Source: Reinekea blandensis MED297
Lineage (GTDB): Bacteria; Pseudomonadota; Gammaproteobacteria; Pseudomonadales; Natronospirillaceae
Reading direction: 5' to 3'
DNA length: 46,775 nucleotides
Assembly (NCBI RefSeq): GCF_000153185.1
Contig: NZ_CH724155.1
Coordinates: 29,678 to 76,452 of the forward strand
The notes below the pieces were generated by a model. The model worked only from the letters and a program-made list of their open reading frames with translations. It was not told the origin of the DNA and ran no database searches. The position numbers were made by a program, and so were the translations under genes. The stretch's first letter is position 1. Every line of letters begins with the position of its first letter. Below, piece after piece: positions 10,362-37,564 of this stretch.

Positions 10362-10420
10362 GCACCATCCTTGTCATTTTAAAAGGTTTAGTCGACATCA
10401 TACCGGGCACTCGCGAACAG

Positions 10421-10454
10421 AAACAACAAACCCCGGCTCAAGGGCCGGGGTTTT
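10421..10454 (-). terminator. Rho-independent terminator downstream of leuA
   Basis: Perfect 8-bp GC-rich stem ACCCCGGC/GCCGGGGT with a 6-nt loop. On the minus-strand RNA it is followed by UUUGUUGUUU. Confidence 0.55.
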
Positions 10455-10481
10455 CAATCAGCAGATTACTCGAGTCTGACG

Positions 10482-13076: not shown

Positions 13077-13178
13077 AGTCGATTAACCATGCTCATCGTC
13101 TGTACATTCTGATGACGTACACGAGAATCGAAAATTCAGTATACTCGGGCCGTTTTTTTAAGGATTCAGTGACCTCTA

Positions 13179-14787: not shown

Positions 14788-14843
14788 GCACCTGCAATTT
14801 GTGGTACGTTGAAGCTTCCGAACATCACCCTGATTCGAATGCC

Positions 14844-15227: not shown

Positions 15228-15243
15228 CCGGGAGCCAATTTTT

Positions 15244-15855
15244 ATGAGCACATTTATCTTAAACCATCACACGTTTCATCCTAGTAACATCATCTGCATC
15301 GGGCGTAACTATGTCGAACACATTCACGAACTCGGTAACGACGTTCCCGACGATATGGTCGTTTTCAACAAACCGGCGTCCTGTGTTCGTGACATTCTAC
15401 TCTCCGAACAAGGCGAACCCCTGCATTACGAATGCGAGCTGTGTCTGTTGATTCGCGGGGGCCGAATTGCCGGCGTGGGTCTTGGTCTTGATCTGACCAA
15501 ACGCGAACTGCAATCGCAATTAAAGACAAAAGGGTTACCCTGGGAACGTGCAAAGGCGTTCGACGGTGCCGCCACCTTCAGTCCCTTTATTGATACACCC
15601 GCTGATCTGAATCGGCTGCGCTTCACACTGCACATCGATGAGGTGTTGGTTCAGGAAGGTTCTCCGAGCCTGATGATGTACCCGCCTGAGGTTATTCTGG
15701 CAGAACTGTCTCGCTTCATGACACCGAATGACGACGATATTATTATGACCGGAACGCCCAAAGGGGTTGGTGTCGTCACCGCAGGATCTCGCTTCACAGC
15801 CAGGCTCTACGATGATGATCAGTGCCGGATCGAACACACCTGGGTCGCCCAGTAA
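15244..15855 (+). CDS. Fumarylacetoacetate hydrolase (FAH) family protein
   Basis: ICIGRNYVEHIHELG motif and overall similarity to YcgM-like FAH-fold proteins. The start at MSTF is preceded by GGGAG. Confidence 0.7.
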   Translation: MSTFILNHHTFHPSNIICIGRNYVEHIHELGNDVPDDMVVFNKPASCVRDILLSEQGEPLHYECELCLLIRGGRIAGVGLGLDLTKRELQSQLKTKGLPWERAKAFDGAATFSPFIDTPADLNRLRFTLHIDEVLVQEGSPSLMMYPPEVILAELSRFMTPNDDDIIMTGTPKGVGVVTAGSRFTARLYDDDQCRIEHTWVAQ

Positions 15856-15864
15856 GGAAACGCG

Positions 15865-16509
15865 ATGAACCTCACCTTAGTTATTGGAAATAAAAATTAC
15901 TCAACCTGGTCGCTTCGGCCCTGGTTGTTATTGAAGGCCTTCAACATCCACTTTGAAGAAGTATCGGTCTCCTTAAAAGACGACGGCCTGCGCGATCGCC
16001 TGCTGGAATTTTCGCCAACCGCTCGGGTGCCGGTGCTGAAAGAACGCGATTTGGTGGTGTGGGATTCCCTGGCCATCTGCGAGTACATCAGTGATGTGCA
16101 TCTTGAAGGCGCCGGCTGGCCCCATACGCCTATCGACCGGGCCCGCGCACGCGCCATCACCTGCGAAATGCACACCGGTTTTAATGCCCTGCGTGGCGCC
16201 ATGCCGATGAACATCCGCGCCAAGCGCCAGGTGAACATCACGCCAGAGGTCGCACAGGACATTGCCCGTATTGATGAGATCTGGTCCGCACACCACCACT
16301 CAGGCTGGCTGTTTGAAAGCTTCGGCATTACCGACTGCTTTTATGCCCCGGTCGCGTTCCGGTTCGAAACCTATGGCATCGAGTTAAGCGAAGCCGCCCG
16401 TCAGTATCAGCACCGGTTGCTGGCGCATCCGGCCCTGAAAAGCTGGGTCGATGACGCCTTAAAAGAAACGGAAATCGTAGACGCCGACGAAGCCGGCGAA
16501 CCACGATAA
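15865..16509 (+). CDS. Glutathione S-transferase family protein
   Basis: 214 aa, N-terminal thioredoxin-like GST domain (YSTWSLRPWLLLKAFNIHFEEVSVSL...ARVPVL...DSLAICEYI). Confidence 0.65.
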   Translation: MNLTLVIGNKNYSTWSLRPWLLLKAFNIHFEEVSVSLKDDGLRDRLLEFSPTARVPVLKERDLVVWDSLAICEYISDVHLEGAGWPHTPIDRARARAITCEMHTGFNALRGAMPMNIRAKRQVNITPEVAQDIARIDEIWSAHHHSGWLFESFGITDCFYAPVAFRFETYGIELSEAARQYQHRLLAHPALKSWVDDALKETEIVDADEAGEPR

Positions 16510-19769: not shown

Positions 19770-20042
19770 TCAATCGCAAAGCCCCTGAAGAAACCGCGCC
19801 ATGTCTTCCAGCTGGTCAATTTCCCGGCGAGCTAGATCCAGCACATCGAGGTACTCCGCGAGATCCGTGAGCGTCGCTTCCCCGCCGCCTTGATTCGATT
19901 CCCGGACGGACTCGAGAATGGGCTCCAGCAGTTCAATTAGTTGTGGGACCGGCGACATGAACGGGCTGGCGTTATAAAGAGGACGGGAGGCGAGCTGCTC
20001 ACGGCGCTGTCGGGCTTTTGACAAGGAAACAATGGTGGTCAT
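19770..20042 (-). CDS. Hypothetical small acidic protein
   Basis: 90-aa ORF starting MTTIVSL, preceded by GGAGAAAG. The longer ORF-track version (to 20243) lacks an RBS. Confidence 0.35.
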   Translation of the reverse strand: MTTIVSLSKARQRREQLASRPLYNASPFMSPVPQLIELLEPILESVRESNQGGGEATLTDLAEYLDVLDLARREIDQLEDMARFLQGLCD

Positions 20043-20153
20043 ACGGCTTTCTCCGCCTGCCTTTTTGCACACTATGACAAAGCAAGATGAACCGGAACTT
20101 AAGCCGACCTGCGTCACTGTACAGCACGTTTGGGTTGCGCTACTGTCTGCTGC

Positions 20154-20480
20154 ATGAGTGATGACCCCAATGTAATTCAGCTGAAAGACATCAAAGCCCG
20201 AGCCGCCGGCGTCAGCCCCGAGCTTGCGGATGTCATTCGCCAAATCAACGAACGCTTTCGTATTAACATCGAACTCACCGACCCACGCCTGTCACGCTTT
20301 AAAAAACTGTTCCCCGCGTTAAGTGAAGCCGCAGCGCAGGATCATGCGGTTGAAATCAGCCCTGCTCGTGAACACGTAAAACGCGCATTCCGACAAGGCG
20401 TTGATGCCGGACGCGCACAGATGATGATGGATGTTATTGTCTGCGTTCTGGAACAGGACGGGTTACTGCAGCGCAAATGA
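20154..20480 (+). CDS. Hypothetical protein
   Basis: 108-aa ORF from the ATG at 20154. The upstream TTG version of the ORF track is less likely. No recognised domain. Confidence 0.3.
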   Translation: MSDDPNVIQLKDIKARAAGVSPELADVIRQINERFRINIELTDPRLSRFKKLFPALSEAAAQDHAVEISPAREHVKRAFRQGVDAGRAQMMMDVIVCVLEQDGLLQRK

Positions 20481-20608: not shown

Positions 20609-21007
20609 TCACTTGCCGAGGTAAGGCGTGACCATCGACATAACCAACACCAGGATACAGCTCAAGCCAGCGCCACCGTAGTAGGCCCGGCCGATTGTTC
20701 TCCTGAACAGAAAAAAAATGGTAGCAACCACACTTGATATCACCAACGTCGATATCGATTCAAGAAAGACATTACCGATGCCTTTTTGCGACCCGCGATA
20801 CATCCAATACAGCCAGAGTACACACCAGGGGGTTAGCCAGCTTATTGCACTGATTCGCTTGAATTTCAGGCTGGTCGAGGTCGCCATCGGAAGCAATACT
20901 GGTAACAACAACAAGGTCAAACCCCAGAGCCAACTCAAGGCATAGAGCACATCACCATGATCAGCGAACACGAGCACTGGTGCACTCAACCAATGAACCA
21001 GTTCCAT
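20609..21007 (-). CDS. Hypothetical integral membrane protein (3-4 TM)
   Basis: Hydrophobic segments (WLWGLTLLLLPVLLPMA, WLTPWCVLWLYWMY, ISTLVISSVVATIFFLF, GLSCILVLVMSMV). Last gene on the strand downstream of the giant ATPase. Confidence 0.5.
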   Translation of the reverse strand: MELVHWLSAPVLVFADHGDVLYALSWLWGLTLLLLPVLLPMATSTSLKFKRISAISWLTPWCVLWLYWMYRGSQKGIGNVFLESISTLVISSVVATIFFLFRRTIGRAYYGGAGLSCILVLVMSMVTPYLGK

Positions 21008-21151
21008 TTCTACTCCTTAGCGCGTTAACGTGTTTCAACGACTATTGTCGATTAAGGTTCAGGAGGCCAACGCGATTACTCGGAGGCCTCCCCGGTGTTG
21101 AACCAAACGCCGGACTGACTGAACATCTGGCTTGCTGTGTTGACTCAGGTG

Positions 21152-24100
21152 CTAGCCTTTAGCATCAAAGGATCTGGACGAACCCTCCGTTGACATCTGC
21201 TTCGACAACTCACGAATGTCTTTCTGAATCGCGGTCATCCGATCCAGATTTTTCAGATCGATATTGATCTTGCCATCCATGATTTTTGCCAGTGGCACCA
21301 GGCTGTTCTCAAAGGTATCGGCCAGCGTACTCAACAACTTGTCGATACCGGGAACGGGCTGATTGACCACCTGAACCGGTGGCGCTTCGAACCGAAGATT
21401 GCCGAGCGCCTGTTCTAACGAGGCCAATGAGGACTGTAACGTACTTGCCGTTTGATTCTGACCAGCTTGCTGCAATAACCCTCCGACCTGCTGAATGGCG
21501 CCAACCATATCCATCAGTTGCGATACGACTTTCTGACCGGTGTCGGCATCGTCTCCGCCCAACGCTTTGGCACGCCGAAAGTCCGCCAGGATTTCCTGCC
21601 AGCGCTGCTCGGCGCGTTCGTCTGCGGTGCCTCGTAACTGAGCCAGCTTCATCAGGTTTTCTTCAGTGCCCTGCGTCAGCAACTGCGCCTCACCCTGATA
21701 GTGATCGTCCACCAGCCGGACCAGTTCACTGTCGGTCATGACCGAACTGATTTTTTCCGCCATCTTGTTCATGTTGCGATAGCTGCCCTGCAACTTGAAG
21801 GGTGGCTCCGTTCGGTATTTGTCGGCCGTTGCCGCAGAGGCGATGTACGCCTGATTGACCTTCAGCACAATCGACTGGATCGTCTTCATGTGTTTCAGTA
21901 CCGCCAGGATTTCCTGCAGCTCAGCCGCGTTATAGGTGTGAGACAGCTCATTGCTGTTCACCTGTCCGCGTTGAGCCATGTCGACCAATTTGTACAGATC
22001 GGCCATCTCCCGTGTCGCCAAGGGCGCCAAGACCGAGTTAGACGTCAGGGAGTTTTCCAGATAGCTGAGCGCGAAGACGTCATCTTTACCCGAGAGCACA
22101 TCGCCGAGGTTATAGATGTCTGCCCGGTTCGCCAGCATGTCCGGAATCTGGAACAGCTCGCCACTTTCCGTGTACGGGTTACCCGCCATGACCACGCTGA
22201 ATTTTTTGCCGCGCATGTCGTAGGTTTTGCTTTGCCCTTGCCAAACGCCTTCAATGCGACGCGTACCGTCACACAGGGAAATGAACTTCTGCAAAAACTC
22301 CGGATGCGTGTGCTGAATATCATCAAGATACAGCATGACATTGCTGCCCATTTCCAACGCCAGGTTCAGCTTTTCCAGCTCCTGACGGGCCGCGCTGTGG
22401 GTCGCAGCCCCTGGATCAATCGACGTGATGTCATGGCCGATGGCCGGACAATTGATCTTCATGAACACCAGTCCAAGCCGGTTCGCCACGTACTCCATCA
22501 AGGTGGTTTTACCGTAGCCCGGAGGCGAGATCATCAGCAGCAAACCCATCAGGTCGGTACGTTTGCTGTCACCCACGGTACCCATCTGTTTCGCAAGGTT
22601 GTCACCAATCAACGGCAGGTAGACGTCGCTGATCAACTTGTTACGAACAAAAGATGACAACGGCTTGGCCTTGAACTGATCGAGCCGGAACTCTGAACGG
22701 TACTGTTCCACCAATCGGTTTCGAACGCTCTGCAAGCGCTGCCAGTCGGGCAAGACCCGGGTATGGTGGTCCTGAAGGCGCGCCAGAAAATCATCCAACA
22801 CCAGATCCAGCCCACCGTCGTTTAACCGCTTGTGCTGTCCGTATAGGGGTTCAACACGCATCAGCAGATCCGCCTCCAGATCCCTCAGACTCACCCGAGG
22901 TTCACACAGCAGTAAAGCCCCCGCTTCCATCACAAAGGGCCTCAGAGCAGCGGGGTCTTCCTGTTGGTTCACATAGGCAGACAGCCAGCGCTCGACATGC
23001 GCCCATCGTTGACCGATGGACATGTCAGTCTGTTCCAGAATCTGGTTAAACGACTCGAGCGCATTAGCCTGATCAAGGTGCGACTGAAACGCCGTCAATA
23101 ACTCGCGGGCGTATTTACTGATGGCAAACGCCAACGGCTCGCGCGACAGTTCGGTCAACAAATAGTCCGCGGCTACTGCCGCTTGTGCCGGCGTCAACGG
23201 GAGCTGCTCGGCATCAGCAAACGCCGTCAGCCTTTCCGTAACAGTTGTCTGCAATGCCTTCCAGGCGGCATGACTGTTCAACAGGGAACGTTGCGATGCC
23301 GCACTGCGGGCTTCCAGCGCCCAGTGGGCTTTCTCTGCCTGATGCACCGACCAGAACAAAACCGCCATGGCCCGAACCCGTCCTTCGAAACGGAAAACAT
23401 CGGCCGCCTGATAGGTTGGTATCAACTGACACAGAATGGCCGCTGCATCGTGATCGTGAATGCCTTTTTCATAGCCTTCGCGGTATCGGGTTGCGGCATA
23501 GGGGCGAACCAACGCCAACATGTCTTCAACATCGGTCGACGCCAGTGCCAAAGCATCCAGAGACAAAGCCTCGCGATCGTAACGTGCATCTTCCAACATC
23601 TGATACGCCAGATACTCGGCCCGATACACCTCGTCGGTTTCCGACGGCAGCGCCTGCTCCCAATAGGGCTTCAGGCTGTCCAGCTCGTCATCGTTCACCG
23701 GTTCGTAATAGTCGGTACCGGTCAAATGCAAGGTTTGCACACCATCGCGAACCAATAGCGTCAGATCCAGAGTCTGGGTGTTCACACTGAACTTGTGTTT
23801 GCCCAGTCGAATCACCTGACCGTCGCCTTCGTACAGGTCGGCCTGATCTCGCAACACCCGGATCGCCTGATCTTTCAGTCCTTTCAGGCGGGCATCCAGA
23901 TCGTCGGCCCGAACTACGTCGTCAAGCTCGCGCAACTCGGAAGACAGCCCACGGATTTTCTGCACCAACGCATCTGAGGCAAAGAAGGTGTTCAGCTGAT
24001 CAACATCGCGGAAACTGTTGCAGCGACGTTGAATGCTGCTGAGTATGCGCTCAGCCGCCGAGAACAGGTTTTGCGCCCGACGTTGCAGCGCGGACTGCAG

Positions 24101-26383
24101 TGATTGCTTATGGCTTTCAAACGCTTCGTAAATTTCTTCCCGTTTACTGATGATGTCAGTCAGGAACTGATCGTAGTCGCTGAACTGGCTTTCCAGCTCT
24201 TCGAGCTGAACCAGCAGACGCGCGAGCTGTTCATCGCATTTTTCCGGCGTGTTCGCCATGCCCAGCGCGTTGTTCACGCTCTGGCCCAGCAACTTAAACC
24301 GAGCACCAAACTGCGCGACCGCTTCACTGGACCCCATGCTGTTCTTCTGCTGTTCCAGCTTCGCTTTTTGCTGATTCAACTGACCGTATACACCGGAAAT
24401 CGATTCAACGATCTGCGTTTGTACCGTCGGATCCGTCACTTCTAAGGTCGCCACCAGTTCCGACAACAGATCCAGACTGTTCGATTGCGTTTCAAGTGTT
24501 TCCAGTAAGGGCGCCAGTTCTGCCACGGTCGTGCAGTCTTTGGCGTGTGACTGTACTTGAGTAATGTCATCCCGGTACGGCTCGAACGCATTATCCTGCG
24601 ACAGGAACGCGAGCGTTCGTTGGTTCAAATCACGTTCGAGCTCTGCTAACTCTCCGTCCAATGCATCGAGCCGCTCGGTTTGCATGTAGCGGTAGTCACG
24701 CAACGTCAGCAAATGACCGCGTTGCTCACGAATGGACTGCAACCCGTCAACAAAGGGTTGCGGGCTGTTCCAGGTATCCGGTTTTAAATCAAACTTCAGT
24801 TTTTCAAGTGCACGCTCTGCATCCTTCAGCGCCTGCTCGGACTGCTGCCGGATCGCGGTAACTTTCTCAAACTCATCCAACACCTGCTCGGAGGTTTCAC
24901 CGATCTGTCGGATGATTGGGGTCAGTGCTGCCAGCTCATCAGATTCCAGCCAGAAGTAGCTGTCGAAAAGCCCGGCACAGTGTTTTGAGAGTTGATTAAA
25001 GTGCTCCGCACTGACATCGGTTGTACGCACGGCTCGCACCACGCTGTACAGATCGGAGACGCCTCGAACGAGCTCCGCGTTGCCAATCCGACCAAAGAAG
25101 GTTGACGGTGCCGGTTGCTGACTGACGTATTCATCCGACTGATAAGGCGTTTTCCAGATCTGTAGCGGATGCACCCGCGTCGGTTCCGCCTCGGCGTAAA
25201 ACAGCGCCAGCCGACCGTCATCAAACAACCCGTAACCATGACCGAACAACGGGTTCTGCATGGTTTTGCTGATCAGGTTATAGCCGAACAGACCGACCTT
25301 CCCGGCTTCGGGTTCGTAAAACACATACAGAACGTCTTCACCATTCGGCGAGCGCACCACCCGCTTAAAGCGCATGCCTACCGTATCGTCATCGAAAGAC
25401 TTCAGATCGCCGGTACTGAGGTAATACCCGCCGGGAAACACGATGCCGTGATCTTCAGGTAACTGCACACAGGACTGACCGATGAGATCAATTCGCACCA
25501 CACGCTCGAGTGTTTTATTGAATACCAGATAACGGGTGGTCTCTTCCCGATACGGCAATATTCGCAGAAGAATCAGTTGGCCAAGATCCGCATAGGCCAG
25601 CTGGCAATCATCCAGTGTCTGGCTTTCCACCTCAACCGGTTCACTGTAAATACCCAGTCCGCTGTCGGTGTTGTTCTCAACCTTGATAGTCAAATCACCG
25701 CGCTGGCAGTCGACAAACAGTGTATCGAGTACGCTGTAATGCGGATGCCGGCCTTCGACGATGTCGTCGCGACCGCACTCGGTCCATTCAAAGTCAAACC
25801 GCGGCGGCAAGGCAATGTCCCGCTCGCCCCGATTGTCGATGTACTCGGTAACATTACCCTGCGCATCCAGAGACCAGCGAAACACGCGCTGATCACTTAA
25901 CCGGTCACCAATCTGAAACGCCGCCAACAGTTTATTGTCTTTCACCGTCAGCTGAATCAGGTGCGTCTGTTTGTAATAGGCGTAGAGTTCTTCAAACTCG
26001 GTCACGAAGCGCTGATCACTCAGGAAGGTACCGCTGAGGGCAACCTCTTCCACCTCAAACTGGCCGTCCCGTTCAACGGGTCGGAACAGTGCAAACACAT
26101 CGTTGACGCGTGTGGTTTTACGCAGCCCGATGTTGACGTTGTAACCCAGCAGAATCCACTCACCGACGCGAACCAGGTCGCGTGCAATGCTGTTGTTTTC
26201 CGTGCGCAGCCGAACGCGACCGGCCACTTCCATGTCAGTACTGCCGAACTCAGCCTGACGGGCATCATTGAGTTGTTGTGTCTGTTGCTCAAGCGCCCGG
26301 CCCTGTTCCATCAACCGGTTGTGCAGGACCTCGTAGGCTCCGCCTTGCGCGACGGCCTGATCGATGTCGTGAGAATCGCTCAT
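21152..26383 (-). CDS. Giant (1743 aa) protein with a C-terminal AAA_5 (MoxR/McrB/dynein-like) ATPase domain, function unknown
   Basis: One uninterrupted 5.2-kb ORF. Walker A ISPPGYGKTTLMEY near aa 1285, Walker B MLYLDDIQ, sensor-1-like VVMAGNP and the arginine-containing LANRADIY. The N-terminal 450 aa is a mixed beta-rich region. About 800 aa of predicted helical/coiled-coil sequence sits in the middle, and an about 300-aa helical tail follows the ATPase. Confidence 0.8.
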   Translation of the reverse strand: MSDSHDIDQAVAQGGAYEVLHNRLMEQGRALEQQTQQLNDARQAEFGSTDMEVAGRVRLRTENNSIARDLVRVGEWILLGYNVNIGLRKTTRVNDVFALFRPVERDGQFEVEEVALSGTFLSDQRFVTEFEELYAYYKQTHLIQLTVKDNKLLAAFQIGDRLSDQRVFRWSLDAQGNVTEYIDNRGERDIALPPRFDFEWTECGRDDIVEGRHPHYSVLDTLFVDCQRGDLTIKVENNTDSGLGIYSEPVEVESQTLDDCQLAYADLGQLILLRILPYREETTRYLVFNKTLERVVRIDLIGQSCVQLPEDHGIVFPGGYYLSTGDLKSFDDDTVGMRFKRVVRSPNGEDVLYVFYEPEAGKVGLFGYNLISKTMQNPLFGHGYGLFDDGRLALFYAEAEPTRVHPLQIWKTPYQSDEYVSQQPAPSTFFGRIGNAELVRGVSDLYSVVRAVRTTDVSAEHFNQLSKHCAGLFDSYFWLESDELAALTPIIRQIGETSEQVLDEFEKVTAIRQQSEQALKDAERALEKLKFDLKPDTWNSPQPFVDGLQSIREQRGHLLTLRDYRYMQTERLDALDGELAELERDLNQRTLAFLSQDNAFEPYRDDITQVQSHAKDCTTVAELAPLLETLETQSNSLDLLSELVATLEVTDPTVQTQIVESISGVYGQLNQQKAKLEQQKNSMGSSEAVAQFGARFKLLGQSVNNALGMANTPEKCDEQLARLLVQLEELESQFSDYDQFLTDIISKREEIYEAFESHKQSLQSALQRRAQNLFSAAERILSSIQRRCNSFRDVDQLNTFFASDALVQKIRGLSSELRELDDVVRADDLDARLKGLKDQAIRVLRDQADLYEGDGQVIRLGKHKFSVNTQTLDLTLLVRDGVQTLHLTGTDYYEPVNDDELDSLKPYWEQALPSETDEVYRAEYLAYQMLEDARYDREALSLDALALASTDVEDMLALVRPYAATRYREGYEKGIHDHDAAAILCQLIPTYQAADVFRFEGRVRAMAVLFWSVHQAEKAHWALEARSAASQRSLLNSHAAWKALQTTVTERLTAFADAEQLPLTPAQAAVAADYLLTELSREPLAFAISKYARELLTAFQSHLDQANALESFNQILEQTDMSIGQRWAHVERWLSAYVNQQEDPAALRPFVMEAGALLLCEPRVSLRDLEADLLMRVEPLYGQHKRLNDGGLDLVLDDFLARLQDHHTRVLPDWQRLQSVRNRLVEQYRSEFRLDQFKAKPLSSFVRNKLISDVYLPLIGDNLAKQMGTVGDSKRTDLMGLLLMISPPGYGKTTLMEYVANRLGLVFMKINCPAIGHDITSIDPGAATHSAARQELEKLNLALEMGSNVMLYLDDIQHTHPEFLQKFISLCDGTRRIEGVWQGQSKTYDMRGKKFSVVMAGNPYTESGELFQIPDMLANRADIYNLGDVLSGKDDVFALSYLENSLTSNSVLAPLATREMADLYKLVDMAQRGQVNSNELSHTYNAAELQEILAVLKHMKTIQSIVLKVNQAYIASAATADKYRTEPPFKLQGSYRNMNKMAEKISSVMTDSELVRLVDDHYQGEAQLLTQGTEENLMKLAQLRGTADERAEQRWQEILADFRRAKALGGDDADTGQKVVSQLMDMVGAIQQVGGLLQQAGQNQTASTLQSSLASLEQALGNLRFEAPPVQVVNQPVPGIDKLLSTLADTFENSLVPLAKIMDGKINIDLKNLDRMTAIQKDIRELSKQMSTEGSSRSFDAKG

Positions 26384-26490
26384 CTGTTTTCCTTGCAGAA
26401 CGACAGCGACCTGCCTGACGACAGGCGCTGTTTGAATCCGTGAAACCCAGCTCGGTTCAAATGATAAGCCGGGTGTCTGTCAGCCGGGAC

Positions 26491-28482
26491 TTAGTTAACC
26501 TTGTCGGCTGGGGCTGGTGTCTTACCGGCCGTCATGAAACGCTGCATGATCTGTTGCAACATCGGACTTTCGGTTAACAGACCATCGATGGCTTTGCCCA
26601 TGCCCATGCCGGAGGCCATCTTGTTGAAGTAGTCGCCATCGCCACCGATGATATCGATGTTGGAGTTCTCGAAGGCCGAGGCCATGATGCTGGCCTGATC
26701 TTTGGAGATCTCTTTGTTGGCGTCCAGTTTCGCCTGAACTTCTGTCAGTGCGGCTTCAAGGCGCATCTTGAACTCTTCAAACTCACGCGCTTCGGTGCTC
26801 ATGTTGTTCATGGCATTGAACTTCGCCGTCAGACCATCGGCCTCGGCATTGGCACGCTCACGGATAACCGCTGAATCGGCCAGACCTTTTTCACGGCTCG
26901 CTTCGGCTTCCGCCAGGCCTTTCTGACGGCTGGCTTCTGCTTCCGCCAGACCCTGCTCACGCAGCCCGTTGGCTTCGGCATTGAGGCGCTCTTCCAGTAC
27001 TTTGGCCTGCATGAGCCCTTCTTTCTCGCGGGCAATGGCCTGGGCTTCGATGACACGCGCTTCGGCCTGACCTTCTTTCTCCAGCGCCTCGGCTTTCGCC
27101 GCCTGCACCTTGGCGGCCGCCAAACCAGAGGCCGCGTGCGTAGCCTGGTCGCCCTCGGCTTTCTTCTTTGCTGCTTCGGCTTGCTTGCTGGACGCTTCCA
27201 GTTCGGCCTGAGCCATCAGCTGAATTTCTTTGGCTTTGTGAACCGCCTGCTGTTCTTCGGCTTCGGCCGCTTTCACCTGCTTGATCTTTTCTTCTTCGGA
27301 GGTCGCTTCCGCTTCCATGATGCGAACCTGTTTCAGACGATCCGCCTCAGAAATTTCCCGCACCTCTTTAATGCGTTCTTCTTCTTCGGCGACCTTCTTC
27401 TCAACAGCGATGCGTTCAGACACGGTGTTGGCAATGATCTTACGCTCTTCTTCCAGGGCCTTTTCTTTGTCGATCCGTTGCAGTTCAACTTCACGTTCGC
27501 GGTTCACCGCTTCCAGTTCGCGCGCCTTAACGACCTTCTCTTCTTCGATCGCCAGGGCTCGTTCCTTGGCTTTATTGGCAATCTCAACCTGACGGTTTTT
27601 GTTGACATCCTGTACTGCAATTTCTTCTTCGGTACGGATGCGGGCTTCTTCCGACTTCAGTCGTTCTTCCTGCTGAACCTTCAGTGTTTCGGCTTCTTCC
27701 CGGGCTTTCAGCGTTTCCACTTCGCGCTTCTGACGGGCCACCGCATCGGCTTCCTGGCGTTCCAGTGCCAATAGGGCTTCACGCGTTTCAACATTCTTCT
27801 TGTTGATCGCCAGCGCCTGATCTTTTTCCAGACGGTTCGTCTCAATGCTTTGTGTGGCCGTCACTTCCGTGATGCGACGGATACCCTCCGAATCGAGAAT
27901 GTTGAACGGGTCGAGTTCTGACTTTGGTGTCTGTTCCAGGTAATCGATGGCAACGTCTTCGAGGACATAGCCGTTCAGATCCTGCCCGATCACTTCGATG
28001 ATCTGTTCACGGAACTGAATCCGGTTTTCGAACAGTTCCAGGAAGTTCATTTTTTTACCGACGGTCTTCAATGCTTCAGAGAACTTGGCATTGAACAGCT
28101 CGTTAACGGCTTCGCGATCAGACGCTCGATCTACGCCGATGGCCTTCGCCACCTTGAGCACGTCGTCCTGGGTTTCATTGACGCGCAAATAGAAAGCCAC
28201 GTTGATATCGGCCCGCAGATTATCTTTACAGATCAACCCGTCCTTGGCCCGCCGATCCAGCTCCAGGGTGATCAGCGAGATCTTCATGACTTCCATTTTG
28301 TGAACAACCGGCAACACAAACCCACCGGTGAAAAACACCTTCGGTTTGGCGGACATGTCGTTCACGATCATCGCATAACCCTGCGGGATCTTTTTATAGA
28401 ACGCATTAAACAGCAGGGCTAAAAACAGCAGTACGCCGAAGATAACACCGCCCCAGATTAAGATGGGCATGATCAGTTCCAT
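26491..28482 (-). CDS. Flotillin-like SPFH/Band-7 protein (YqiK-like) with an extended Glu/Ala/Lys-rich coiled coil
   Basis: N-terminal TM (ILIWGGVIFGVLLFLALLF), an SPFH domain, then about 350 aa of EA-rich coiled coil with internal 11-aa repeats (GLAEAEASRQKGLAEAEASREKGLAD). AAGGAG RBS 8 nt upstream. Confidence 0.85.
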   Translation of the reverse strand: MELIMPILIWGGVIFGVLLFLALLFNAFYKKIPQGYAMIVNDMSAKPKVFFTGGFVLPVVHKMEVMKISLITLELDRRAKDGLICKDNLRADINVAFYLRVNETQDDVLKVAKAIGVDRASDREAVNELFNAKFSEALKTVGKKMNFLELFENRIQFREQIIEVIGQDLNGYVLEDVAIDYLEQTPKSELDPFNILDSEGIRRITEVTATQSIETNRLEKDQALAINKKNVETREALLALERQEADAVARQKREVETLKAREEAETLKVQQEERLKSEEARIRTEEEIAVQDVNKNRQVEIANKAKERALAIEEEKVVKARELEAVNREREVELQRIDKEKALEEERKIIANTVSERIAVEKKVAEEEERIKEVREISEADRLKQVRIMEAEATSEEEKIKQVKAAEAEEQQAVHKAKEIQLMAQAELEASSKQAEAAKKKAEGDQATHAASGLAAAKVQAAKAEALEKEGQAEARVIEAQAIAREKEGLMQAKVLEERLNAEANGLREQGLAEAEASRQKGLAEAEASREKGLADSAVIRERANAEADGLTAKFNAMNNMSTEAREFEEFKMRLEAALTEVQAKLDANKEISKDQASIMASAFENSNIDIIGGDGDYFNKMASGMGMGKAIDGLLTESPMLQQIMQRFMTAGKTPAPADKVN
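26881..26979 (-). repeat. 3 x 33-bp imperfect in-frame tandem repeat inside the flotillin coiled-coil region
   Basis: Units cagacctttttcacggctcgcttcggcttccgc, caggcctttctgacggctggcttctgcttccgc and cagaccctgctcacgcagcccgttggcttcggc. They encode LAEAEASRxKG repeats. Confidence 0.6.
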
Positions 28483-28530
28483 TTCTGTGTGCTCCTTTGC
28501 TTAGAAATGCTCAGTACGAGTCGTCGTGGT

Positions 28531-29157
28531 TTAGTGTGTTTGTGCGAGCTGAAAACAGCCCTGCTCGGGAATGAATCGCACGATGGTGACCTCATCACCG
28601 GATTTATAACCGAGGTGCGCCGGTGCCCGAACCTGAATGATCAGACTGGCGCCTTCGTAGTTAAAATGGGCCTCGCCGAAGGTTTCATCGACGCGGCTTG
28701 AACGGATGGTGCAGTTTTTTCCAATGGCATAGCGACCAAGAACCTGTCGTTGTGCTTTGCCGAAGAGTTTGCGTAAGGGACGGATGGTGATCGCGGTGCA
28801 GGGAATGGCCACCACAAACGCCCCTAGCGAAATGACGGTACCAATCAGCCAACTCATCAGCCCCGCCTCGGACGGCATCACCAGGTAAGCGGCAAAGTAA
28901 CTGGCTAACCAGGCGTAAAGCGCCAGCAACGTCAGGATCACCGGAACCGGGACGCCTGTCAGACCAAAGGTTGAGAGCCAGCCGGCAACACCGGGCAGCT
29001 CCGCATCGGCATCGACATCGAGGTCGACATCCACGCCCGGTATGTCAAAGTCGGCCATGCCAAGCATGGCGATGACCAGGAACAGCAGGCAGATGAGTAA
29101 AGCCGTGGTCCAGATCGCCGTCGGGAACGACAGGCTGATGTGTAAAAAAGTGTCCAT
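28531..29157 (-). CDS. YqiJ/NfeD-like membrane protein (flotillin partner, C-terminal OB-fold)
   Basis: Multi-TM N-terminal half and a C-terminal soluble beta domain, the same architecture as E. coli YqiJ. Immediately upstream of the flotillin gene, as in the yqiJK pair. Confidence 0.7.
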   Translation of the reverse strand: MDTFLHISLSFPTAIWTTALLICLLFLVIAMLGMADFDIPGVDVDLDVDADAELPGVAGWLSTFGLTGVPVPVILTLLALYAWLASYFAAYLVMPSEAGLMSWLIGTVISLGAFVVAIPCTAITIRPLRKLFGKAQRQVLGRYAIGKNCTIRSSRVDETFGEAHFNYEGASLIIQVRAPAHLGYKSGDEVTIVRFIPEQGCFQLAQTH

Positions 29158-29158
29158 G

Positions 29159-29488
29159 TTACTCCTCAGCAGACGAGGTTTGACTCCATTGCAGCAACTC
29201 CTGCGCTGCGCGTTCTTTAATCGCTAAGTGATCCGCCGGATCAATGCCATAGCGTTCTGCCAGCAAAGCCATTTCATCGGCGGACAGGCTGATGGTCAGA
29301 CGCGGCCGAACCGGTTTTTTCACCGGTAACCCGAGAATACTGCGAATCTGATCCGACGGTGTGCGATCGGCTTTAATCGCTGATGTCTTGATCCGGCGCT
29401 GTGCGTCGGTCGAGATATCAAAGGCGATCTGCACCGCTTTTATCGCGCGTCGTTCGTCCGGCCAGTAGTCCTCGGGTTGCTTTGCCAT
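29159..29488 (-). CDS. Hypothetical protein
   Basis: 109-aa ORF tightly packed (2-bp gap) before the YqiJ-like gene. No recognised domain. Confidence 0.4.
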   Translation of the reverse strand: MAKQPEDYWPDERRAIKAVQIAFDISTDAQRRIKTSAIKADRTPSDQIRSILGLPVKKPVRPRLTISLSADEMALLAERYGIDPADHLAIKERAAQELLQWSQTSSAEE

Positions 29489-29495
29489 GGCGGCC

Positions 29496-29735
29496 TCAGG
29501 CGTTATTCAGATAAGACTGCAGTTCGGTAATCTTACGGCCCAGTTCGGCGTCGATTTCTTCCGGGCGGACCCGATCCAGAATGTTGCCGAGAACGCGTCG
29601 TTCGTTGTCATCAATCTCACCATCACGCAGGGCAATGTTGATCAGTTCGTCAAACTCAGCGGCGTCCAGTTTACCGTCGTCGGTAAACGCCTGAATGGAG
29701 CGAAACGACAGTTCCAGATAATCACGGTTTTCCAT
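29496..29735 (-). CDS. Hypothetical small protein, TerB-like motifs
   Basis: 79 aa, acidic, with two xDGxxDxxExxxL-type motifs (TDDGKLDAAEFDELI and RDGEIDDNERRVL) reminiscent of the TerB/DjlA-N family. Confidence 0.4.
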   Translation of the reverse strand: MENRDYLELSFRSIQAFTDDGKLDAAEFDELINIALRDGEIDDNERRVLGNILDRVRPEEIDAELGRKITELQSYLNNA

Positions 29736-30426
29736 GGTTGGTTTCCTTTTTCAGTTGGGCCAGTATGGCGTCCGGACTGTCGTCATCCCAGACGATGCCG
29801 GCTTGTTGGTATTGCAGTTTGGTGTCCTGTGACTGCTGCAGGTCGGTCTCGGCCTGCCATTGATCCTGAGCGCGCTGCTGCCGTGCGCGTATGCGCTCGA
29901 CTGAGGCGCGTGCATTGGTCAGTGATTCGGTCCCCTCGGCCAGATGATCACGCAAAGCGAGAGTGGTCTGATGCATGGTTTGGCTGGTCGTCAGCATGTC
30001 TCGTTCCCGGAGCAGTTCGCCGAGATCGCTCTGCGCGCGATTCAACTGATAACGGGCACGGGCGGTCTGCGCGGAAACTTCACTCAACTCTGTTTGCAGC
30101 GATTGCATTTGGTGACGACATTCTGATATCTGCTGCGCATGTACCGCCGCCTGAGTTTCCTGACCGGCCTGCAGAGCCGAACGGGCCTGTGTTTGCAAGT
30201 GCTGCTGTTCACGTTCCAACTTGTCGAGTCGTTGTACCAGGCTCTGTTCGGTCGACTCCATGGTTCGAAACGCGGTTTCCGCCTGCGACAGAATCGATTG
30301 AGATCGGGCAATGGAAGCTTCCAGTCGGTGATCCTGTTGCTGATCGACCGTCTCGGGGACATCTCCAACCGCGCTCGATATTTCGACAACGCTGCGTTTT
30401 AACAGTGAGATCAGTTTACTGAGCAT
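29722..30426 (-). CDS. PspA/IM30 (ESCRT-III-like) family protein, YjfJ-like paralog
   Basis: Predicted all-helical coiled coil of the IM30 size class. N-terminus MLSKLISLLKRSVVEISSAV parallels the PspA MGIFSR..I.. amphipathic start. GAGGAGG RBS 8 nt upstream of the chosen ATG. It follows a YjfI-like gene as in the E. coli yjfIJ pair. Confidence 0.65.
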   Translation of the reverse strand: MLSKLISLLKRSVVEISSAVGDVPETVDQQQDHRLEASIARSQSILSQAETAFRTMESTEQSLVQRLDKLEREQQHLQTQARSALQAGQETQAAVHAQQISECRHQMQSLQTELSEVSAQTARARYQLNRAQSDLGELLRERDMLTTSQTMHQTTLALRDHLAEGTESLTNARASVERIRARQQRAQDQWQAETDLQQSQDTKLQYQQAGIVWDDDSPDAILAQLKKETNHGKP

Positions 30427-30439
30427 GGGTCCGTCCTCC

Positions 30440-30847
30440 TCAGCGCAGATAGGGTTCAAAAGCCAGTAATGCCTGTTGAGCATTTTCAGCCAGCGTTACC
30501 AGTTCGGTTGCAATCAGATGGGTATCGGAATCCAAGGCCAGGGCTCCGAAAGCGACGTAATAGTTTTCAACCAGCGCAAACGCACTTAATGGCATCGGCA
30601 CGTTCAGTTCAAGCAGCAGAGCGTTCAGTTGGGTTTCGCGGTCATCACGAATCTCAGCGCGATGTGCCAGGTAGGCAATGCATAAAATCTGGGTATCGGT
30701 ATGGGTGACAAAGATCGGAGGGTCATTCAAATGCTCCACTTCCACCCGCAGGACCGAATGATCGCCCTGAATCGGCATGCAATGGAAACGATGTCCCTCA
30801 AACTGACTGCTGTCGAGGAATGCGTTGAGCTGTTGCAATCGGGTCAT
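30440..30847 (-). CDS. YjfI-like protein (DUF2170)
   Basis: The C-terminal VENYYVAFGALALDSDTHLIATELVTLAENAQQALLAFE closely parallels the E. coli YjfI C-terminus (EEYYIVFGALSLKSSLEDILLEITSLVDNALDLAEI). Start chosen at MTRLQ with GGGAGG 5 nt upstream. Its stop overlaps the RBS of the next gene. Confidence 0.65.
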   Translation of the reverse strand: MTRLQQLNAFLDSSQFEGHRFHCMPIQGDHSVLRVEVEHLNDPPIFVTHTDTQILCIAYLAHRAEIRDDRETQLNALLLELNVPMPLSAFALVENYYVAFGALALDSDTHLIATELVTLAENAQQALLAFEPYLR

Positions 30848-30874
30848 GCCGCCTCCCTGGCTGAGCATCAGATA

Positions 30875-30953
30875 TTGACATAATATGTCGGTCATCCTGA
30901 CCGAGCGGGACATATTATGTCAAACAGTTACGAACGAAAGTGACTTTTGTCAC
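30875..30953. promoter_or_regulatory. Cluster of perfect palindromes in the divergent promoter region: a 15-bp inverted repeat with a nested 5-bp IR, plus a second 5-bp IR
   Basis: TTGACATAATATGTC (30875-30889) and GACATATTATGTCAA (30909-30923) are exact reverse complements. The 19-bp spacer contains GGTCAtccTGACC. GTGACttttGTCAC follows at 30940-30953. The arm also reads as a -35-like TTGACA fused to TAATAT. Confidence 0.55.
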
Positions 30954-33900
30954 AGCTTTTGAGTGTGTGGTTTCCATTTGGCGCAACCACCAGAAAGCCG
31001 TTAAGATCTGCCCTCCATGCTTCCAAGGATCGGGCCGTGTCCACTTCCGCCATTGCTGATGTCATCCGCTACTACCGGGATTGCTTCCAGGCGTCGTTTT
31101 TCTCTTCCGCCGGGTACGGCTTATTTGATCAGAAAGATCTGGTGCCTTTGGCCATTGCGCACCTGGATGACGGCATTCCCTGGTCGGAGCAATGGCAGCA
31201 GCAATATGTGATCGATGCCGATCAGGTCCATCTGATGCGCATCGACGGCATCACCTTGATTCCGGAACCCAACAGCGCAGCCACGACCGATGCCCACTAT
31301 CGCCCGTCCCGCGTCGCGCAGATGAACGCCTGGGCCGATAACCCCCAGGCCGAGCCGGACTGGGACGAGGAGTGGCAACAACAGTTACAGGCCGATACCG
31401 AACCGGCCCCTCAATTAACGGTGGCCTCACTGCCGAGCCTGTCGAACCTGGCCGACTGGTTGCAAGAGCAGGCCGAGCAATCCACGGAACGCCGGCAACT
31501 GGCCGTCAGTGTGTTGTTTTTGATGCCCAAAAACTTTCGTGCGACCGCGCACAAAGCCGATTTCGTTGCCTATCTCGACCGGCTGACCCACCAGCATCAC
31601 AACCCCGACAGTCTGCTGTGGCAAAGTCTGCTGCGACAGTCTGTTATGCCGGTTACGACCACACCGACGCCCGAACTGCCCTTTTTATCTCAGCGCCAGA
31701 ACCAGGCGTTGCACAGCGCCCGTACGCGTCGGTTTTCGCTGATCCAGGGTCCGCCCGGGACCGGCAAAAGCCGGCTACTCGCCACGTTGGCGGCGCAACT
31801 GGCCAGTGACAACAAAGCCGTCTTGCTGACCAGCCACAGCGACCATGCCCTGACCGTACTGCGGGAAAAACTGGTGCAGGATATCGGTCTTGATGAGCGC
31901 TGGCTGGTTCATATCGGACCGGGACGTCGGACCCGAAAGCTGGCCGAACACCTGTCGCGGCTACTGACCCGAAGTGACGAACCTGCGGCGCCCACTCGCG
32001 CGATGCCCGGCGCGTGGGCGGACTTCCATCGCAGCGAGACACGCCTGCGCCGGCAACTGGCTCGTGAACCCCAACTGACAGAGAACTGGCTAACCGGCGA
32101 GCTGACCGGTTCGCAATCATTGAAACGCCGATGGTGGTCACTGTGGCACCGCGACCATCATCACCTCAACCGCACCATCGATACCCTGCATGCCTCGGTC
32201 GATCAACTCGCCCGAGCGTTCGGTGCCGATCTTAACCGACAACTGCACCAGGCTTTTCAGTTTTCGCGGACTAAGAACAGTGACGCCTGGTCCACCTTGG
32301 CACAGCGCCTGAAACGCGGCAGTCTTCGCGAAAGCGTTGGCCATCTGAATCAGCGCCGGGACGATGTGTTTACACCCACCGATGGGCTGAAAATCTGGTT
32401 AATCAAACTGGATGATCTGCCCGAACAGGCTTTTGGCCTGTTCGACACCGTCATCATCGACGAAGCGACGCAGGTCAATATGGCGGAAGCCATTCCGGCA
32501 CTGGCGCTGAGCCGTCATGCCGTGGTGGCCGGCGACCCCCGACAACTTCGACATTACAGCTTTTTGAGCCGCGAACAGGAGGCCCGCATTGCCGGCAGCC
32601 TGAATCTGAACCCGGACGATGTCGTCAGCTTCCGCGACACCAGCCTGCTCGACTACAGCGAACAGTACCTGACAGGTATTTCAGCCTTTGATGCCTGCCA
32701 CCAGCTCGACGAACACTATCGTTCCGTGCCGCCATTGATGGATTTCAACAGCCGACAGTTTTATCAGGGCGATGTCCAGGTGCTGACCGGGCTGAATCAG
32801 GTCAACAGTCTCAAGCTGCACCTGAACTGGGTGATGACCGAAGGACAACGGGTTAACAAAATCAATCAGGCTGAGGCTTCCGTGCTTATCGAGCATCTGA
32901 CGCAGCTGATCAACCGCGAACGGAACCAACCGGTTAGCAAAAAAACGACTCTCGGGGTGCTTTCATTTTTCCGCGATCAGACGGAGCACCTGAAACAACA
33001 GATTCTGCAAACCTGTTCACTCAGTGACATTCGCGCGCATCAGGTTAAGGTGGGTACGCCCTTTTCGTTTCAGGGTGAAGAGCGCGACCACATGCTGATT
33101 TCCTGTGCTATCGACGATCACAGCCACCCCGGCACCTGGGGGTATCTGAATCAACCGGATGTATTCAATGTGGCGACATCCCGTGCCAGACGCCAACAGA
33201 CGCTGTTTCTGTCGGCCAGTCCAGCCGAACTGCCGGTTAACTCGGTGCTACGCAGCTATTACGATTTCAGCCGCACACCACCAACCTCGGCAACCGCACC
33301 GGAACAGAGCCTGCCCTGGTTACGACACCTGTTACCCGCACTTCAGGACGCGGGCTTCCGTACCCTGGCACAGCAATACATCGCCGACATCCCCATCGAT
33401 TTGATTCTGGAAGCCGATGGCCGGACGCTGGCTGTCGACCTGATCGGTTTTCCTTCCGAGGTCGGTCAGGCGATTCATCTGGACCGTTACCTGGCCCTGT
33501 TCCGCGCGGGTATTCCCTTGTTTCCGTTCAGTGCCCGGGAATGGGTCTTAAACCCCAATGGTTTGATCGAAGACCTGCTTCGCTGGGCCGGACAATACGA
33601 TCATCGACTATCGATGGAGTCCCCCAAGGAAACAACACCCGGCTCTGACTTCATTCCTGCCAAACTCTGGCAAGGGCTTTCTCGATGCCAGCAAAGTCCG
33701 GACGTGCAACAGGAGTTCACCGATGCTGAGTTGCAACTCACTGACCAGATTCACCGGCTTGAAACCCTGTTGAGCAGCCTCTTTCAACCCGGCTCAGTGA
33801 CGTATCTACGATATCAATCGGCTATTACCTCAGTGGCAGGTCAGACACTGGAAAACCTGGAAACCTACCGGTTGCTGTTCAGTCAGGTCTGGGAACAGGG

Positions 33901-34084
33901 CAGTCAGGATCATGCTTACTGGAATGGCTTGGTAGCCCCCATTAAACAACGGCATTTGGATTACCTGTCGGCGCTGCAGCGGTTGCAAACCTCGTTGACC
34001 GAAACCATCGCTCAGCAGAAGCCCGATACCTTTCAGCTTAACGATCTGGAAGCCTTAACGGAGCGGCTGAAGCATTATCAGTAA
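30947..34084 (+). CDS. Superfamily-1 helicase, Upf1/DNA2/NAM7-like (AAA_11/AAA_12)
   Basis: Walker A LIQGPPGTGKSRLLATL, Walker B VIIDEATQV, motifs VVAGDPRQL and FNVATSRAR. About 300 aa N-terminal and about 330 aa C-terminal regions are unassigned. The ORF-track start is a TTG at 30947 with a poor RBS. The in-frame GTG at 31037 preceded by AAGGA (7-nt spacing) is a plausible true start. Confidence 0.8.
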   Translation: MSQLLSVWFPFGATTRKPLRSALHASKDRAVSTSAIADVIRYYRDCFQASFFSSAGYGLFDQKDLVPLAIAHLDDGIPWSEQWQQQYVIDADQVHLMRIDGITLIPEPNSAATTDAHYRPSRVAQMNAWADNPQAEPDWDEEWQQQLQADTEPAPQLTVASLPSLSNLADWLQEQAEQSTERRQLAVSVLFLMPKNFRATAHKADFVAYLDRLTHQHHNPDSLLWQSLLRQSVMPVTTTPTPELPFLSQRQNQALHSARTRRFSLIQGPPGTGKSRLLATLAAQLASDNKAVLLTSHSDHALTVLREKLVQDIGLDERWLVHIGPGRRTRKLAEHLSRLLTRSDEPAAPTRAMPGAWADFHRSETRLRRQLAREPQLTENWLTGELTGSQSLKRRWWSLWHRDHHHLNRTIDTLHASVDQLARAFGADLNRQLHQAFQFSRTKNSDAWSTLAQRLKRGSLRESVGHLNQRRDDVFTPTDGLKIWLIKLDDLPEQAFGLFDTVIIDEATQVNMAEAIPALALSRHAVVAGDPRQLRHYSFLSREQEARIAGSLNLNPDDVVSFRDTSLLDYSEQYLTGISAFDACHQLDEHYRSVPPLMDFNSRQFYQGDVQVLTGLNQVNSLKLHLNWVMTEGQRVNKINQAEASVLIEHLTQLINRERNQPVSKKTTLGVLSFFRDQTEHLKQQILQTCSLSDIRAHQVKVGTPFSFQGEERDHMLISCAIDDHSHPGTWGYLNQPDVFNVATSRARRQQTLFLSASPAELPVNSVLRSYYDFSRTPPTSATAPEQSLPWLRHLLPALQDAGFRTLAQQYIADIPIDLILEADGRTLAVDLIGFPSEVGQAIHLDRYLALFRAGIPLFPFSAREWVLNPNGLIEDLLRWAGQYDHRLSMESPKETTPGSDFIPAKLWQGLSRCQQSPDVQQEFTDAELQLTDQIHRLETLLSSLFQPGSVTYLRYQSAITSVAGQTLENLETYRLLFSQVWEQGSQDHAYWNGLVAPIKQRHLDYLSALQRLQTSLTETIAQQKPDTFQLNDLEALTERLKHYQ

Positions 34085-37347: not shown

Positions 37348-37564
37348 TGTTTTTCGTTCCTTCTGGTCAATCGGCCATGGGAAGGGCATGATCTTGCACG
37401 CGGACGGTAACCGTCCAGTGCCAAAAGCCGTAAACCGGTCAGGACCTTTCCTCTGAGTCCTGATTGCCGGGGCCTGATAACACTAATTCAACCCTACCGG
37501 TCTGGCGCGGATTCATTACACTACGCCATCACGACCCAGTTCAACCGGCAAAGAAGGAAATCTC

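Follow-up and report, generated by a model that had tools for sequence, protein, structure and literature searches.

A probable Reinekea blandensis member of the bac-type operon class, combining PspA-like, flotillin and giant AAA+ ATPase genes with a divergent helicase

The stretch of DNA analysed here, referred to as the window, comprises 46,775 nt of the Reinekea blandensis MED297 genome (NZ_CH724155.1). Its subject is a row of closely spaced minus-strand genes encoding a YjfI/DUF2170 protein, a PspA-like protein, two small proteins, a YqiJ-like membrane protein, a flotillin, a giant AAA+ ATPase and a short hydrophobic protein, with a superfamily 1 (SF1) helicase gene running in the opposite direction. 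The open reading frame (ORF) listing of the window contains eight co-directional minus-strand ORFs at 20609-30913. A first-pass annotation of this DNA had described a nine-gene operon; the tight row and its coordinates hold, and the count is eight, as it is in that annotation's own list. Successive ORFs, as listed, are separated by a 44-nt overlap, a 14-nt overlap and gaps of 7, 1, 48, 107 and 144 nt. The overlaps and the final 144-nt gap had been described correctly; the flotillin-to-ATPase gap is 107 nt and therefore lies outside the range of 2-60 bp given for the remainder. A terminator scan detected none above background inside the operon.

Three of the listed starts were revised, and all three corrected starts agree with the gene calls of close relatives. 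The YjfI ORF (30913-30440, minus strand, 157 amino acids (aa) as listed) most likely begins at ATG 30847, which has a GGGAGG ribosome-binding site ahead of it and gives a protein of 135 aa (30440..30847). The PspA/YjfJ-like ORF (30483-29722, minus strand, 253 aa as listed) most likely begins at ATG 30426, giving 234 aa (29722..30426) and a 13-nt gap from the end of yjfI. On the plus strand the helicase ORF, listed as 30947-34084 from TTG 30947 with 1045 aa, most likely starts at GTG 31037 with AAGGA ahead (31037..34084, 1015 aa), and from this start it is identical to a 1015-aa NCBI protein. With the corrected starts, the divergent intergenic region is 189 bp long (30848-31036). The divergence and the shared promoter region had been annotated previously and are retained, with a helicase of 1015 aa in place of 1045 aa and this length for the region.

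Gene content was compared among 80 related loci (identified below by L numbers), taken with 10-kb flanks out of at least 570 ATPase-bearing genomes, which were found by scanning one genome for each species with a degenerate pattern. Content was determined by tblastn and ORF clustering; for pspA, tblastn alone identified 6 loci and clustering 51. The YqiJ-like and flotillin genes are directly upstream of the ATPase gene in 70 of the 71 loci with enough upstream sequence, an arrangement far beyond chance, and 51 of the 66 loci whose upstream sequence is long enough to judge it contain a PspA-like gene (family c8). The ATPase was recovered as one uninterrupted tblastn match in 80/80 loci, four ambiguous ones having been re-checked. 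As the genes are syntenic outside this genome and the giant ORF is not broken in relatives, the unit is therefore real, as had been proposed. The supposition that the ATPase is present because PspA needs an AAA+ partner fares less well, as the invariant neighbours are the flotillin and YqiJ-like genes and 15 of the 66 loci (e.g. in Providencia, Xenorhabdus, Pragia and Psychromonas) have the triad without any PspA gene. The invariance of the triad instead suggests that the SPFH/NfeD pair are the obligate partners of the ATPase.

The sole exception to the triad is a Methyloprofundus metagenome-assembled genome (L021, ATPase at 10001-15229), where the genes ahead of the ATPase run in the opposite direction.

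The combination had initially been thought not to be a described system, which is incorrect. An NCBIfam search gave a lead to Pseudomonas BacA, and the same gene families form the bacABCDEF operon of P. aeruginosa (PA3732-PA3727) and an operon class defined by comparative genomics in Ravi et al. 2024 (mSystems; PMC11237479). According to the operon-class section of that paper, the class joins a CesT/Tir (YjfI, DUF2170)-PspA pair to a transmembrane (TM)-band-7-flotillin protein, a novel AAA+ ATPase and a YqiJ/YuaF 3-TM protein, sometimes adds a PLD hydrolase, and also has abbreviated forms without PspA. All four defining components given there have a counterpart in Reinekea, the YqiJ/YuaF one at the level of a weak profile likeness, and both PLD-containing and triad-only forms occur among the compared loci; the helicase, TerB-like, 109-aa, rhomboid and Zn-ribbon genes and the operator boxes described below are not listed in that section.

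In P. paraeruginosa (L055) the gene order is DUF2170-PspA-YqiJ-flotillin-ATPase-PLD-YaeQ-RecJ and the DUF2170 protein matches PDB entry 8q8o at 5.1e-89. This order and this match make the loci orthologous to the 'biofilm-associated cluster' of P. aeruginosa, in which gene order points to bacE as the giant ATPase gene and bacF as the PLD gene. The entry 8q8o is a crystallised DUF2170 family protein matching BacA. Gene content, domain identities and conserved order are observed features of the Reinekea locus, as is its orthology to the bac operon, and it is very likely that it belongs to the Bac/Ravi operon class. It shares with P. aeruginosa the DUF2170, PspA-like, YqiJ-like, flotillin and DUF3686 AAA+ families in the same order, but differs in several respects: the Reinekea YjfI is short (135 aa as opposed to 206 aa), 79-aa TerB-like and 109-aa genes are inserted between pspA and yqiJ, PLD (bacF) and rhomboid genes are absent, and there is a divergent helicase with palindromic boxes rather than the proposed sigma-54 promoter. 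The dyad proteins of the two have low identity (about 30% in the case of YjfI), and the flotillin and the ATPase are 54-60% identical.

Published work on the orthologs provides a functional context. Using reverse transcription PCR, Wallart et al. 2024 detected a single bacA-to-bacF transcript in P. aeruginosa PA14 (PMC10948618); BacB-F were up 6- to 13-fold in a bacA mutant, i.e. under negative control by BacA, which has a type III secretion system (T3SS)-chaperone-like fold (PMC10948618). Osmotic shock induces PA3731 (PspA-like), and its mutant shows defects in biofilm, swarming, rhamnolipids and lung virulence (PMC2587700). In cells infected by phage the expression of PA3728-PA3732 is raised (PMC12041424), PA3728, named 'ATPase', is a recurrent target of mutation in isolates from cystic fibrosis (PMC8190622), and a BacA-BacB complex has been predicted with a probability of 0.981 (PMC13092808). 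The earlier suggestion of a membrane repair/remodelling or stress system is the best-supported one, and agrees with Ravi et al. (PMC11237479) and the P. aeruginosa ortholog work (PMC2587700, PMC10948618, PMC12041424).

The YjfI protein matched Pfam DUF2170 at 5.6e-30, a family with a CesT/T3SS-chaperone-like fold, and the NCBIfam BacA model at 3.6e-11, which is under the model cutoff; its match to 8q8o was weak (E 3.6e-04). Its orthologs in L081 and L085 were called at 135 aa. The PspA-like protein matched Pfam PspA_IM30 of the ESCRT-III superfamily at 6.7e-13, over the cutoff, has orthologs of 232-234 aa, and gave only noise in a PDB sequence search. The DUF2170 gene is directly upstream of the PspA_IM30 gene, as the operon class requires. 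It partners pspA in all pspA loci except L002 and L046, and is visible alone in the incomplete locus L008.

In L008, L017 and L057 the orientation of the dyad is reversed with respect to the triad, indicating that the operon is modular. These inversions also favour a reading in which separable systems, namely a YjfI-PspA pair, a flotillin-YqiJ-ATPase machine and an unrelated helicase, share only regulation or location; so do the 15/66 triads without a dyad, the E. coli yqiJK pair, which stands alone without an ATPase gene, and the helicase of L082, which is unlinked to the operon. This reading is quite improbable, as the two modules, where present, are adjacent in every locus examined, with the inverted cases sharing a box-bearing region, and the P. 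aeruginosa genes are on a single transcript and respond jointly to the loss of bacA. Furthermore, the TerB-like gene shifts among positions inside both modules.

The YqiJ/NfeD-like membrane protein (bacC-like; 29157-28531, minus strand, 208 aa) resembled E. coli YqiJ by profile comparison with a probability of 72% and an E-value of 3.3e-05. The Pfam YqiJ_N match spans the full model, yet has an E-value of 0.26, and 2/16 relatives reached <=0.1 (best 0.0023). The 'YqiJ/NfeD' label thus has weak backing. A profile search of the PDB gave no match.

The adjoining flotillin (bacD/PaFlo3/YqiK-like; 28482-26491, minus strand, 663 aa) has an N-terminal TM segment, an SPFH/Band_7 domain, a long coiled coil and a Flot-like C-terminus. 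With the coiled coil removed, residues 1-310 matched Band_7 at 1.2e-08, over the Pfam cutoff, and an alignment of 483 aa with E. coli YqiK (E 2e-39) shows 27% identity; on these two results the label of flotillin is upheld. Pfam Flot and NCBIfam FloT were matched at 0.004 and 5.2e-09 respectively, and identity across loci is 50-70%. Neither the single sequence nor the profile matched an entry in the PDB.

The giant DUF3686 AAA+ ATPase (bacE/PA3728-like; 26383-21152, minus strand, 1743 aa) has at least 5978 homologs and is 100% identical to a Reinekea blandensis database protein. It matched Pfam DUF3686 at 2.9e-191 (residues 31-477), DUF7902 at 9.1e-27 and AAA_5 at 4.2e-07. An N-terminal region of about residues 1-480, consisting of a helix and the beta-propeller-like DUF3686, is followed by a coiled-coil/helical stalk containing DUF7902 (598-681), a single AAA+ module at about 1270-1430 (AAA_5/AAA match about 1282-1405) and a conserved helical C-terminal region. 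Walker A GYGKTT, Walker B LDD, sensor-1 N1402 and R1420 are invariant over 16 diverse homologs. No TM segment, protease, sigma-54 activator or helix-turn-helix domain was detected in the protein using Pfam. Sequence and profile searches of the PDB returned P-loop-level matches only and no close solved relative, and the predicted structure of residues 1200-1743 was poor (pLDDT, the predicted local distance difference test, 55), resembling a generic AAA+ fold only.

Within the Walker B segment (1351-1358), the invariant sequence is LYLDDIQH, so that Asp replaces the usual catalytic Glu of AAA+ proteins; hydrolysis may consequently be slow or regulated.

Source annotations name this protein 'DNA repair ATPase/protein' and the Pfam text for DUF3686 reads 'ATPase involved in DNA repair'. 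These names are one point in favour of a genuine DNA-repair ATPase that would act with the helicase (and elsewhere with RecJ or PLD-nuclease neighbours) on DNA at the membrane, together with the adjacent helicase here, RecJ nearby in Pseudomonas, and weak RuvB-like matches around Walker A. However, no paper in the library searched mentions DUF3686, and hence no experimental basis for this naming was found. RuvB similarity is limited to the P-loop, the RecJ adjacency is Pseudomonas-specific, and the genes invariably next to the ATPase encode membrane proteins rather than DNA enzymes. A role in DNA repair is accordingly highly improbable.

Between the two modules lie the small genes. The TerB-like mini-protein (29735-29496, minus strand, 79 aa) contains two DG-x-[IL]-D-x-x-E motifs. 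Among the 21 members of its family, Pfam TerB was matched by 17 (best 5.8e-05), DUF533 by 14 and EF-hand_5 by 15, and the family profile matched calmodulins in the PDB at an E-value of about 0.1. The window sequence alone gave a weak DUF533 match (0.091) and no other. The earlier TerB-like label thus has backing at family level (17/21); a TerB-like metal-binding mini-protein is a reasonable, not secure, assignment. Homologs are present in 25 other loci, in 24 of these together with pspA, and occupy three positions: after pspA, in the flotillin/ATPase interval, and downstream of the ATPase. Two TerB-like copies are present in L007 (Gynuella), at 6676-6918 after pspA and at 15367-15609 after the ATPase. 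A correspondence between the 79-aa protein and the N-terminal domain of the accessory PLD was considered and is not claimed (hhalign probability 32%).

The 109-aa protein (29488-29159, minus strand) has homologs of 49-70% identity in L081, L007, L001, L068, L017 and L057, and L085 has a 110-aa gene in the same position. The gene is confined to the subtype with a short YjfI, being present in these seven loci and the window. Weak matches (0.07-0.09) to RHH_10/RHH_1 were obtained for 3/7 members of the family, and its profile had no match in the PDB. By eye, two ribbon-helix-helix (RHH) units can be discerned, and the protein is possibly a tandem RHH regulator.

The control region that yjfI and the helicase share (30848..31036, between the two starts) contains a perfect 15-nt inverted repeat with arms at 30875-30889 and 30909-30923. 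A pair of palindromic boxes of 13 bp, GACATAWTATGTC, sits inside these arms, about 30-36 bp apart. A second small palindrome, GTGACAAAAGTCAC, is at 30940-30953; as GTGAC-N4-GTCAC it is kept between the window and L081. Equivalent box pairs were found upstream of the dyad in L001 (5351/5383), L002 (5624/5654), L007 (5495/5523), L068 (5287/5319) and L081 (9853/9884), and in the dyad-inverted loci L008 (818/853 and 1020/1053), L017 (6834/6870 and 6982/7009) and L057 (6993/7116/7145), where the boxes occupy the region between the diverging dyad and triad. With the window counted, the 109-aa gene is present in 7/9 box-bearing loci, and from this co-occurrence the 109-aa protein is put forward as a candidate repressor that may act at the GACATAWTATGTC boxes. 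A sigma-54 (-24/-12) promoter has been proposed upstream of bacA in P. aeruginosa, a one-species proposal and not a definition of the class. A scan of 30848-31036 for TGGCAC-N5-TTGCW with <=2 mismatches gave no match, and a scan of the control region for the sigma-70 consensus gave none above background.

The helicase matched Pfam AAA_11 at 1e-20 and AAA_12 at 3.1e-21, in agreement with its annotation as a divergent Upf1/DNA2-like SF1 helicase. A C-terminal restriction-endonuclease-like domain is possible (MTES_1575, 0.14 only). The orthologous family is small, with about 14 clusters showing full-length similarity. In the Reinekea clade (L081 and L085) the gene diverges from yjfI as in the window. 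Homologs with 29-35% identity in L028, L038, L040 and L041 (Ectopseudomonas/Pseudomonas) and L029 (Motilimonas) are co-directional with the operon and follow its ATPase and PLD genes; in L028 there is a 4-nt overlap between the PLD stop and the start of the helicase. The suspected significance of the helicase adjacency is borne out by these two different arrangements. The gene is absent in most loci, including those of close relatives of carriers (L031, as opposed to L038), and is best read as a facultative accessory, neither a chance neighbour nor a core part.

A 35%-identical helicase homolog is also present on a metagenomic contig (L083, 9387-14461) between SSB and TelA (toxic-anion resistance) genes, which ties the helicase family a second time to stress proteins of the membrane or tellurite type.

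In other loci the ATPase gene is followed by genes for a rhomboid protease (39 loci), PLDc_2 (28), a double Zn-ribbon protein (25) and PHA_gran_rgn (6), for example at 15617-16162 in L007, 15966-16673 in L012, and 15597-16151 and 15284-15562 in L001; the window has none of the four. Variable 3' accessories of this kind, with the helicase in 6 loci, would fit a conflict system at the membrane (directed against phages or plasmids, or acting by abortive infection), in which PspA, flotillin and the ATPase would sense a disturbance of the envelope caused by an invader and the helicase, PLD and rhomboid proteins would be effectors directed at nucleic acids or membranes. The presence or absence of the helicase between close Pseudomonas relatives and its translational coupling to PLD in L028 point in the same direction, as does the induction of PA3728-PA3732 by phage infection. 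TerB domains are reportedly common in stress and conflict systems, which counts for the same reading. The helicase also resembles anti-phage helicases in its core, matching MkoA (3.7e-40), MkoC and PDC-S37 in PADLOC-DB 2.0 and scoring against ProA (2.1e-26), Hhe and PLuB in NCBIfam. However, these matches cover the generic helicase core only and the NCBIfam scores are far under the family cutoffs, while the eight operon proteins gave only coiled-coil or P-loop noise against the known anti-phage families in PADLOC, so that the anti-phage alternative raised in the first-pass annotation gained nothing from this check. The core genes are 50-70% identical across families of Gammaproteobacteria, the chromosomal context is stable within genera (e.g. 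YaeQ and RecJ in Pseudomonas), and the window has no GC anomaly, tRNA gene or sign of a mobile element. Furthermore, the helicase is missing from most loci, the window lacks PLD and rhomboid genes, and the classical Psp stress response is likewise phage-induced. A dedicated conflict system is distinctly unlikely.

The HflK/C SPFH cage encloses the FtsH AAA+ machine, and HflK/C-FtsH, QmcA-YbbJ and YqiK-YqiJ are similar to the triad in that an SPFH gene with an NfeD/YqiJ-type partner is tied to an AAA+ ATPase; in contrast, neither a TM segment nor a protease domain was detected in the Reinekea ATPase. The classical Psp system (PspF-PspABC) and B. subtilis PspA-YdjGHI resemble the operon in having a stress-induced PspA/IM30 protein restrained by a partner, and a passage of PMC7619361 states that the B. 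subtilis SPFH protein YdjI is required for linking PspA to the membrane. In contrast to classical Psp, no PspF, PspB or PspC match was found for the eight operon proteins and the helicase in Pfam or NCBIfam, and the AAA+ protein, of about 1750 aa, is no enhancer-binding protein. The triad, the HflK/C-FtsH precedent and the B. subtilis link between SPFH protein and PspA together therefore favour a membrane-stress module.

An analogy may also be drawn with ESCRT-III/Vps4, in which the gene of an ESCRT-III superfamily polymer would be matched with an adjoining AAA+ ATPase gene. A 2025 review points out that bacteria have no known Vps4-like ATPase. The Reinekea ATPase differs from the Vps4 machinery in having no MIT domain match in Pfam, and Vps4 was no closer to its AAA+ module than other AAA+ clades in the low-confidence model. 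It is conceivable, although unlikely, that the DUF3686 ATPase is a hexameric, ATP-driven remodeller docked at a flotillin/NfeD cage that builds up or strips polymers of flotillin and of ESCRT-III-like PspA, an independent counterpart of Vps4, and that in some lineages it has been turned to membrane-triggered antiviral use, with PLD and the SF1 helicase-nuclease attacking foreign nucleic acid.

The preferred reading, to which we give somewhat better than even chances, is that the locus is the Reinekea version of a widespread gammaproteobacterial envelope-stress/membrane-remodelling operon, with the ATPase acting on flotillin/NfeD, on the PspA assembly, or on both. The specific role of the ATPase is held with much less confidence than membership in the operon class, and we infer both its substrate and the physical interactions. 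Module A would consist of the chaperone-like YjfI/BacA and the PspA/ESCRT-III-like YjfJ/BacB, here joined by the TerB-like protein and the 109-aa putative regulator, and Module B of the invariant triad of YqiJ/NfeD-like protein, flotillin and 1743-aa single-AAA+ ATPase. Membrane damage or osmotic or phage stress would induce the operon; flotillin together with YqiJ would build a cage of SPFH type, or a microdomain, on the inner membrane, and PspA, restrained by YjfI, would be freed and polymerise on the stressed membrane. The ATPase, probably a hexamer docked via its propeller or C-terminal tail, would then assemble, remodel or recycle flotillin assemblies, PspA assemblies or both. The TerB-like protein may sense metal or membrane state, and the divergent helicase would be a facultative add-on.

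Several points weigh against the envelope-stress reading. Neither PDB profiles nor the low-confidence model placed the ATPase in a particular AAA+ clade, and its Walker B has DD rather than DE. The YqiJ label for the 208-aa protein is weakly supported, the RHH assignment of the 109-aa protein is weak, and operon status in Reinekea is deduced only from spacing, conserved gene order and the absence of internal terminators above background. The PLD, rhomboid and helicase-nuclease accessories do not obviously fit a pure repair model. Published phenotypes are pleiotropic, without a demonstration of membrane repair, and deletion of PaFlo3 had only a ~20% effect on biofilm and no other phenotype (PMC13086221).

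This operon class bears on the dynamic control of bacterial PspA/ESCRT-III and flotillin assemblies. Hundreds of gammaproteobacterial species carry it, including P. aeruginosa, where it is connected with biofilm and virulence, and in it a conserved giant AAA+ ATPase, apparently catalytically intact, is linked through conserved gene order to flotillin and in most cases also to PspA. The class therefore offers an experimental handle on assembly dynamics. The class itself is already known from comparative genomics and from P. aeruginosa. As the opportunity is already visible in the literature, the window adds a well-resolved variant with regulatory and accessory detail and is not a discovery. What is new here is modest: the short-YjfI subtype, the paired palindromic boxes, a possible RHH repressor and the recurrent helicase link. 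The helicase link and the wandering TerB-like gene were not previously listed for the class, as far as the operon-class section of Ravi et al. shows.

The last ORF of the row, a predicted multi-TM protein (21007-20609, minus strand, 132 aa), is a doubtful member of the unit. It has an AAGGAG ribosome-binding site and is 144 nt from the ATPase gene, with no convincing terminator in the interval. The hydrophobic protein had no Pfam, NCBIfam or PADLOC match, and no homolog was found among the 80 related loci, so its annotation as a membrane protein belonging to the operon is replaced by that of a lineage-specific gene. Two possible identities were examined. The post-ATPase gene of L085 (98 aa, same strand), a locus with an 88% identical ATPase, has no similarity to it, and a degenerate rhomboid was rejected as the protein lacks GxSG/H motifs and a Pfam match.

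The operon is flanked by genes for a GH3 glycosidase, a TetR regulator, a solute-binding protein and a LemA/GIDE protein. GC content is flat over the window and it contains 0 tRNA genes, which together with these ordinary metabolic neighbours argues for a resident chromosomal locus; a mobile island or horizontal transfer was considered and rejected on the same grounds of no GC shift and no tRNA genes. About 1 kb past the helicase, a minus-strand gene at 35164-37389 encodes a 741-aa protein with a GIDE (E3-ligase-like) membrane domain and a C-terminal LemA domain; its adjacency to the operon is not kept in other loci. Between the TetR gene and the 132-aa ORF is a putative 157-aa ORF (19770-20243, minus strand) without a Pfam match, which is overlapped by a putative 116-aa ORF on the plus strand (20130-20480).

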